DNA of 64,000 nucleotides from Escherichia phage vB_EQ1. Numbering within the stretch: the stretch's first letter is position 1; the number at the start of each line of letters is the position of its first letter. Below the pieces are notes generated by a model. It worked only from the letters and a program-made list of their open reading frames with translations, was not told the DNA's origin and did no database searches. Location of the stretch: the sequence record PQ516281; one strand, written 5' to 3'. The position numbers and the translations under genes were made by a program. Of the stretch, positions 22,062-22,357 are shown piece by piece.

Positions 22062-22357
22062 TATAAATTCTCTTTAAATGAAAATGCAGGACTTATTGAC
22101 ATTGCCTGCGCAAGCCCTCAAGGGGAACATAGGTTTTGGATATTTAACGACAGGATAACCATAAACCTCGTCATCATACCAACCACGACTTAGACAGATA
22201 ACCTTTTTCTGACGCGTGATAGTATAAAATACATTCAAGAGGTACACCGTAAAACTGCCGGGGTCTTAAAACTATAATGATTCGCAAATCATTAATCAGA
22301 CAGTTCGACGGCTCCTCGATTTTCTAGCCGCACTTAAGGTAGCGAATCACCTAAAAC

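Follow-up and report, generated by a model that had tools for sequence, protein, structure and literature searches.

An RNA-structured spacer with an orphan ToxI-like unit between rIII and gene 30.9 of a Mosigvirus

The spacer between rIII and gene 30.9

The sequence analysed here is a stretch of 64,000 nt from Escherichia phage vB_EQ1 (record PQ516281; hereafter the window). It comes from an RB69-like T-even phage of the genus Mosigvirus (Tevenvirinae), with genes on the minus strand. Our subject is the spacer of 296 nt (22062–22357) that separates two genes of the same strand, rIII and 30.9. Upstream of the spacer, rIII (22358–22606, minus strand) encodes the lysis-inhibition accessory protein of 82 amino acids and is itself preceded in gene order by gp31 (22731–23063, minus strand). 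Downstream, gene 30.9 (21882–22061, minus strand) encodes a basic protein of 59 amino acids, which belongs to phrog_1427. The identities of both flanking genes were fixed by the annotation of close relatives, and the 1,051-nt region around the spacer is 97–99% identical to phages a20, AV110, moskry, ATK47 and G53. Gene 30.9 is followed, in this order, by a UUCG-loop terminator, a T4-type early promoter and gene 30.8. In the T4 RefSeq record, 30.9 is annotated with 58 amino acids and the gap measures 244 nt.

The original prediction, made from the letters alone, had described a non-coding and structure-rich gap at this place and had offered a small RNA, a regulatory leader of the 59-amino-acid frame or a decayed gene as explanations. 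The gap is indeed non-coding. On the gene strand it contains open reading frames of 57 (GTG start), 37 (TTG) and 22 (GTG) amino acids; none has a ribosome-binding site, and all three are disrupted by 1-nt indels among relatives that are more than 97% identical. Relatives carry a coding gene that aligns here in a formal sense only. A frame is open in e11/2 and T2 and a few records annotate a hypothetical protein, but these frames lack an ATG or ribosome-binding site and are broken in most relatives. As to the three explanations, a non-coding structured RNA is supported and the 3′ 115 nt are leader-like with respect to 30.9, whereas the decayed gene finds weak support.

A ToxI-like unit after the rIII stop codon

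The rIII stop codon TAA (22358–22360) lies 1 nt ahead of a single ToxI-like unit, TTTTAGGTGATTCGCTACCTTAAGTGCGGCTAGAAAATC (22318–22356, minus strand, with its core at 22322–22352), which is here called M1 or pseudo-ToxI and stands on the gene strand, the one presumed to be transcribed. This module is the most informative feature of the spacer and had gone unnoticed in the original prediction. It was found by BLAST, with the gap as query and with 5,426 complete E. coli genomes and the plasmids in PLSDB as targets. Only gap positions 1–44 matched the E. coli genomes (53 genomes, with 72 of the 76 places on plasmids); in PLSDB the same positions matched 71 records at 210 places. Almost all of the matches fall on small plasmids, and one record frequently has several of them; the E-values were 4e-5 to 2e-3 against 7–28 Gb.

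Two of the plasmid places were inspected. In pTA113-2 the match is situated inside a tandem array of 5.6 copies of the 36-nt repeat AGGTGATTTGCTACCTTTAAGTGCAGCTAGAAATTT, which we take to be equal to the ToxI repeat of pECA1039, and in pU90-1 inside an array of four copies of a related 36-mer. Both arrays end 50–120 nt upstream of genes annotated as ‘type III toxin-antitoxin system ToxN/AbiQ family toxin’; they are toxI antitoxin arrays. M1 shows 91.7% identity to the pTA113-2 repeat over 36 nt and is identical to repeat 3 of pU90-1 at 25 of 25 positions, corresponding to local identities of 92–100%. In terms of the repeat it measures 35 nt, because CCTTTAAG is shorter by one T; two of the pU90-1 repeats show the same. 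Its 3′ junction, GAAAATC (GAAAAUC in the RNA), is exactly that of pU90-1, and the junction sequence GAAAATCGAGGAG (22312–22324, minus strand) agrees at 11 of 13 positions with GAAAATCTAGGTG, the start of a second repeat in pU90-1. Since the 6 nt after M1 (GAGGAG) resemble the start of a next repeat, the locus holds about 1.3 repeats. By these sequence matches M1 is a homologue of ToxI, the repeated antitoxin RNA of the ToxIN type III toxin-antitoxin systems, which act by abortive infection and are here enterobacterial.

M1 differs from the plasmid loci in being a single unit, found once in the window, in contrast to the 4–5.6 tandem copies of the two arrays and to tandem repetition of 2 to 5.6 units in general. 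It is also without a terminator and toxN downstream; the gene after the unit is 30.9, not toxN. A tblastn search with two ToxN proteins gave no match in the window below E = 0.39. M1 is therefore an orphan like the copy in Pectobacterium phage PhiTE.

The fold of M1 was tested on an alignment of phage and plasmid units (A4). The inferred pseudoknot, which uses the same pairs in the arrays, consists of S1 (GGT/ACC) and S2 (TCGC/GCGG) and is formed in 95% of the alignment cells compared to 33–57% with slid partners. Two pairs show compensatory exchanges (C-G/U-A/A-U and G-C/A-U), one of which is seen in the T4 version of S2, UCAC/GUGA.

For ToxN-Pa the cleavage motif is AAAU. The 340-nt stretch 22041–22380 has only three AAAU, and two of them, at 22363 and 22322, bracket M1 at a distance of 41 nt, the former overlapping the last codons of rIII. 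The cleavage motif of ToxN-Ec is GAAAU (PMC10853763), which is not present here.

Canonical ToxI matches 249 phage records, among them 162 Klebsiella T4-like phages, about 60 Escherichia and Shigella T-even phages and PhiTE-like Pectobacterium phages. M1 is polymorphic: RB69 and JN02 lack exactly M1, and UGJNEcP2 and RB33 lack M1 together with the adjacent module M2. Its place varies as well. In most genera the unit follows the rIII stop codon directly, while in Tegunavirus TG1, in Jiaodavirus and in a Proteus Gelderlandvirus it follows the pseudoknot of the core described below.

The closest precedent is the pseudo-ToxI of PhiTE (PMC3475682). Like M1, it is an orphan, non-coding phage copy of the 36-nt ToxI repeat in an intergenic place, with no adjacent toxN, similar but not identical to bacterial ToxI and comprising about one repeat in the wild type. 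The two differ in that PhiTE is an rV5-like myovirus, whereas M1 resides in T-even phages of the Straboviridae. M1 has a fixed context there, after rIII or after the pseudoknot according to genus, and its neighbours are conserved RNA structures as well. None of the 249 phage records showed an expanded escape variant, and an activity of M1 is predicted from the comparison.

Conserved RNA structures and modular composition of the spacer

Folded as a whole, the interval did not stand out from its shuffled versions (z = −0.48; 28 of 100 did equally well), and the analysis therefore relied on covariation. The region between rIII and 30.9 was taken from 57 further loci of the Tevenvirinae in GenBank and IMG/VR, yielding 58 spacers with the present one. 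In this comparison with relatives, which the original prediction had proposed as a check, a spacer of 120–416 nt is present in all 57 relatives, and compensatory changes occur in four elements: M1, M2, a pseudoknot and the hairpin P3. The interval is thus structure-rich in the sense of four comparatively supported RNA structures, but these are of another kind than the nested inverted repeats described before.

Perfect repeats do exist, namely TAATGATT/AATCATTA at 22275–22282 and 22287–22294 and TGATTCGC/GCGAATCA at 22278–22285 and 22342–22349. They are not nested, however. The GCGAATC arm shares bases with the TAATGATT hairpin, in the loop of the latter and in one of its arms, and the two pairings are therefore in competition. 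The long-range pairing GATTCGC/GCGAATC is not conserved either; T4 has GATTCAC and RB69 is without that arm.

M2 (22239–22317, minus strand) is an extended hairpin of 79 nt (GAGG...CCTC) with a predicted −24.5 kcal/mol. Its apex is the hairpin TAATGATT-TGCG-AATCATTA (22275–22294), capped by UGCG and amounting to only −4.5 kcal/mol. In the RNAalifold consensus of 16 haplotypes M2 has 25 pairs, five of them with compensatory double changes and others changing to G-U, with four broken cells. It is 97–100% identical between genera and occurs in Mosig-, Tequatro-, Dhaka- and Gapriverviruses. M2 is thus an additional conserved RNA domain of the spacer. A site for RegB, which is expected in unpaired intergenic stretches of early RNA and whose consensus is GGAGRAYARAA with C at positions 5 and 6 strongly disfavoured (PMC1702504), was considered within it and rejected, as GGAGCCGUCGA departs from the consensus by C at these two positions and its GGAG, contained in the junction GAAAATCGAGGAG, is base-paired in the M2 stem.

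The variable linker M3 (22179–22238, minus strand) separates M2 from the 3′ core; 55 nt are missing from it in T4. The core, about 115–120 nt from a pseudoknot to the start of 30.9, is near-universal among the 57 relatives. Its first element is an H-type pseudoknot (22132–22172, minus strand), recognisable in nearly every spacer examined, with helix A pairing GACgAGG (22166–22172) with CCTGTC (22149–22154) and helix B pairing GGTT (22157–22160) with AACC (22132–22135). Loop 3 is the conserved A-rich GTTAAATATCCAA (22136–22148; as RNA GUUAAAUAUCCAA). In the alignment of 31 sequences (A2), 76% of the cells are paired, compared to 65% in shuffles and 28–48% with slid partners. The covariation score is 0.301 versus 0.127 in shuffles, with none of 500 shuffles reaching the observed value, and nine of the 15 pairs are altered on both sides. 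These statistics are conservative, as the alignment has two lineages out of register.

A pseudoknot operator is known from the T4 gene 32 mRNA. Like it, the element of the spacer is of the H-type, conserved in T-even phages and located in the 5′ leader of a small gene whose product looks nucleic-acid-binding; the gene 32 pseudoknot is absent from Rfam, too (PMC10690425). The two differ in sequence and locus, and hairpins rather than an unstructured A/U-rich tract follow the pseudoknot of the spacer. Binding of the pseudoknot by the 30.9 protein is hypothetical. A function as stimulator of −1 frameshifting or stop-codon readthrough was rejected, as the pseudoknot has no slippery heptamer upstream of it and its distance from stop codons differs from relative to relative.

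Two hairpins come after the pseudoknot. P2 (22115–22125, minus strand; CCC-CTTGA-GGG), read by eye from the alignments, has an invariant stem, a loop that varies among genera and a conserved CTTGCG after it. P3 (22086–22109, minus strand; GCAGG-CAATGTCAATAAGT-CCTGC, then ATTTTCATTT) has −7.1 kcal/mol. Its stem covaries with that of Gelderlandvirus CF-SP2 (GCAGG/CCUGC versus GAACUGG/CCAGUUC), and other genera have unrelated hairpins at its position, e.g., GGGAGC/GCTCCC or GAGAGGT/ACCTCTC. The equivalents of P3 in TG1 and in loci L049 and L056 look like canonical intrinsic terminators, while P3 itself, followed by AUUUUCAUUU, was not called a terminator by the scan. Finally, in most minimum free energy folds the initiation region of 30.9 (22059–22085, minus strand; ATG at 22059–22061) forms a TTTTC...GAGAA hairpin over the Shine-Dalgarno sequence. 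Other genera have CUCC/GGAAG in the same place where UUUUC/GAGAA stands here. An AUG in the P3 loop opens a frame of 13 codons (22061–22102, minus strand), the stop of which overlaps the 30.9 start (TAATG). In T4-type phages one extra A brings this AUG into frame with 30.9, which explains the older annotation of T4 30.9 with 72 amino acids as compared to 58 in the current RefSeq record.

The covariance-model search recommended in the original prediction came back empty, since Rfam gave no match at E ≤ 10 in the gap, nor in eight related loci. It gave none for genuine toxI arrays either, and its silence is uninformative with regard to ToxI. M2, the pseudoknot, P2, P3 and a module X had no match in the E. 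coli genomes or the PLSDB plasmids, and thus there is no evidence of their mimicking known antitoxins.

Taken as a whole, the spacer is a mosaic of exchangeable modules. Matches to the gap were obtained in 777 phage records; M1 and M2 are present in some relatives and missing from others, whereas the core beside 30.9 stays. Between genera the gap is 93–100% identical, above the flanking genes rIII and 30.9, and 60-nt bins reach 97–100%. Compared to T4, the identity is 93.8% in the gap, 87.6% in rIII and 71% at the third codon positions of rIII.

Several relatives illustrate this modularity. Module X, of about 139 nt, replaces M3 in slur14, JB75, UPEC07 and in phages of Klebsiella, Enterobacter, Citrobacter and Kosakonia. 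It is located outside the present window, as extracted measures 139 nt with a conserved core of 135 nt (slur14, L009:579–717; LilPanda, L015:611–749), and is found in 404 phage records with one copy each, including T4-like phages of Escherichia, Klebsiella, Enterobacter, Citrobacter, Serratia and Erwinia. Its consensus fold has 39 pairs, 12 of which show compensatory changes, and includes a GNRA-capped stem (TCGA-GAAA-TCGA versus CTGA-GAAA-TCAG); neither an Rfam match nor a plasmid homologue in PLSDB was found for it. In Yersinia phage TG1 (L014:999–1625) the modules are permuted to the order P2, pseudoknot, ToxI-like unit and terminator. The next gene there has the N-terminus of 30.9 (about 15 residues, MKLSKAKAKTAVKET) joined to an unrelated body of about 190 amino acids. 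In the Dhakavirus IME08 (L018:550–640) the ToxI-like unit is replaced by some 70 nt of unrelated sequence, an insert that bears TTGGCA...TATAAT-like motifs and provides the M2 frame with an ATG. Upstream of the pseudoknot, a hairpin that covaries by eye, with approximate limits, reads CCATG-TGTACG-CATGG in LilPanda (L015:494–540) and CTCTG-TGTACG-CAGAG in PM2 (L017:716–750).

Possible roles of the spacer and observations on its surroundings

In the reading that we prefer, and hold with middling confidence, the spacer is a transcribed, structured RNA in which an orphan pseudo-ToxI, a candidate decoy against ToxIN, is combined with a cis-acting leader of 30.9. Its transcription and processing, the binding of ToxN and the effect on 30.9 are what we infer. 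The spacer would be transcribed on the gene strand, serving rIII as 3′ untranslated region (UTR) and 30.9 as 5′ leader, presumably from promoters upstream of genes 31 and rIII and with its end at the strong terminator after 30.9. Upon shut-off of host transcription by the phage, the labile ToxI of the host would decay and the ToxN RNase would be freed, at which point the phage transcript would supply a ToxI look-alike. ToxN could cut M1 at the flanking AAAU motifs, and M1 could occupy ToxN as an antitoxin mimic or a competitive substrate, such that abortive infection would be blunted, an effect known for the expanded pseudo-ToxI of PhiTE. The 3′ core with the pseudoknot, P2, P3 and the hairpin at the ribosome-binding site would most likely act in cis on the translation of 30.9 or on message stability.

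Published work on ToxIN is in line with such a role. ToxIN restricts T-even phages and is triggered by the loss of ToxI after transcription shut-off (PMC9391042, PMC10853763). In PhiTE the pseudo-ToxI suppresses ToxN, and escape arises by its expansion or by the capture of toxI (PMC3475682, PMC3594212). TifA, the T4 gp61.4 protein, is an inhibitor of ToxN (PMC9391042, PMC10853763) and would serve the same end as M1 in a T-even infection, although it is a protein from the dmd region and M1 is a candidate RNA at another locus. The papers just cited, a review of type III systems (PMC5086642) and a study of escape phages of the T4 family (PMC5449768) make no mention of a ToxI-like unit in T-even phages. 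Nor did we find the RNA elements of the spacer mentioned in the literature, which was covered incompletely.

A number of observations speak against a decoy function of M1. The wild-type PhiTE locus, described as a single repeat, does not allow escape from ToxIN, and a single cloned repeat does not neutralise over-expressed ToxN (PMC3475682, PMC3594212), partly because the active unit spans the repeat junction; M1 likewise is a single unit. Plasmid-borne toxIN restricts T2, T4 and T6 strongly and RB69 less so (PMC9391042, PMC10853763). T2, T4 and T6 carry a diverged M1 and are nevertheless strongly restricted, and their known counter-measure is TifA (PMC9391042). M1 is dispensable, as it is absent from RB69, JN02, UGJNEcP2 and RB33. 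Its 5′ tail is unlike the junctions of the arrays, and the 5′ AAAU lies 7 nt further out, giving a unit of 41 rather than 36 nt. The base-pairing scheme was derived in this analysis and not taken from the ToxIN crystal structure, and exact and degenerate pattern scans of the GTDB representative genomes retrieved no identical bacterial array. The reported partial resistance of RB69 to toxIN, for its part, is not explained by M1, which RB69 lacks.

An alternative, in our view a rather unlikely one, is that the spacer is a purely cis-acting intercistronic region for processing, stability or translation of the rIII-30.9 message and that M1 is a functionless remnant left by an earlier recombination with a toxIN plasmid. 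The near-universal core next to 30.9, in contrast to the changing presence of M1 and M2, would fit this, as would the ribosome-binding site that is held within a hairpin in every lineage, an RB69 that manages without M1 and the inactivity of a single repeat in PhiTE (PMC3594212). However, the fold of M1 is kept by compensatory changes across T4, Jiaodavirus and Tegunavirus, which is unexpected of a neutral scar, and its differing placement relative to the pseudoknot among genera suggests that it was retained as a unit. Going beyond the preferred reading, the rIII-30.9 spacer of the Tevenvirinae could be an ‘RNA anti-defence island’, a hot spot at which genera exchange structured decoy RNAs. 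Each decoy would neutralise a different host defence that recognises RNA, perhaps with the 30.9 protein as an RNA-binding partner. Candidates for such decoys are the pseudo-ToxI, M2, module X and also the pseudoknot, which bears an AAAU in its loop; we consider this extension unlikely.

An origin from a protein-coding gene of originally about 80–95 codons, now frameshifted and devoid of a start codon, is suggested by one frame through M2 and M3 with 16 synonymous, 14 non-synonymous and three stop changes (7/25/1 and 6/27/0 in the other frames). An 81-codon frame across the gap to the 30.9 start in e11/2 and T2, an ATG-started version of 59 codons in IME08 and a 6-nt in-frame deletion in T2-type phages point in the same direction. 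Yet most, or at least several, of the ‘synonymous’ changes in M2 are paired partners that changed together in a compensatory exchange, and the compensatory changes of the pseudoknot fall on second codon positions (D/E/V swaps), in agreement with an RNA and not with a protein. The frame has neither an ATG nor a ribosome-binding site in Mosigviruses and Tequatroviruses, is broken by 1-nt indels among near-identical phages and by stops in L025, L050 and T4, and matches no PHROG or Pfam family. Only seven matching clusters exist among 5.8 billion proteins, all of them phage open reading frames or phage-like sequences from the same spacer, and we regard a decayed gene as improbable.

We judge the chances to be similarly slim for a trans-acting small RNA (sRNA) released from the 3′ UTR of rIII, which would comprise the pseudoknot, a single-stranded A/U-rich stretch and the terminator-like P3 and would base-pair with host or phage messages. 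The architecture of 22086–22172 resembles that of enterobacterial 3′-UTR-derived sRNAs. Loop 3 of the pseudoknot is strongly conserved, and P3, which is followed by a U-rich run, has textbook terminator counterparts in TG1, L049 and L056. Here, though, P3 is weak, with a stem of 5 bp, a loop of 14 nt and a U tract that is interrupted, and the scan did not call it a terminator; moreover, neither a promoter nor a processing site was identified for such an RNA, and Rfam had no match. Very improbable is the arrangement implied by the degenerate early-type promoter of the original prediction, i.e., a terminator of rIII followed by an early promoter for 30.9. Its basis is the hairpin TAATGATT-TGCG-AATCATTA followed by TAGTTTT and a loose resemblance of TTTTAC-N16-TATTTT to −35 and −10 elements. 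The consensus scan detected neither a sigma-70-type promoter nor a terminator in the gap, and the apical hairpin has only the −4.5 kcal/mol given above. The supposed −35 coincides with the 3′ side of the M2 stem, a conserved one, whereas the −10 part lies in M3 and, in T4, within the missing 55 nt. No T4 middle promoter has been identified between 30.9 and rIII (T4 130,541–130,784; PMC2988021, Table 1).

If active as a decoy, as in the reading we prefer, M1 would add a second, RNA-based route to the only known T-even counter-measure against ToxN, the TifA protein. T-even phages are the main model of phage-host conflict, and among the defences directed at them ToxIN has been studied well. The ToxI look-alike is kept in hundreds of T-even genomes, including a diverged but fold-preserving copy in T4, and the natural variation in its presence, for instance between the present phage and RB69, makes the idea of a decoy directly testable. 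M2, the pseudoknot and module X are supported by covariation, unannotated in the records examined and without an Rfam model, in a genome family that is usually deemed fully mapped.

Further observations concern the surroundings of the spacer. The terminator directly 3′ of 30.9 (GGGAGAC-UUCG-GUCUCCC, 21852–21876, minus strand) has −13.2 kcal/mol and is succeeded by a textbook T4 early promoter for 30.8 (AAAAAGTTTAAAAAGATGTTTAC...TGTTACTAT). It is this segment (21790–21876, minus strand), and not the rIII-30.9 gap, that we presume to be the terminator and early-promoter region of Truncaite et al. 2006. An ‘ori type 2 repeat’ is annotated just upstream of 30.9 in ATK47; nothing was found in support of a replication origin there. 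Upstream of gp31, in the position of gene 31.1, an open reading frame of 102 amino acids (23121–23429, minus strand) matches the WYL_2 Sm-like SH3 beta-barrel family (PF10902, E = 4.5e-10). A gene for a class I DAHP synthase of 330 amino acids (24000–24992, minus strand; PF00793, E = 1e-74) is located directly upstream of the dCMP deaminase gene cd. It places an enzyme of the aromatic-amino-acid pathway within a T-even-type phage, and RB69 has no such gene beside cd.

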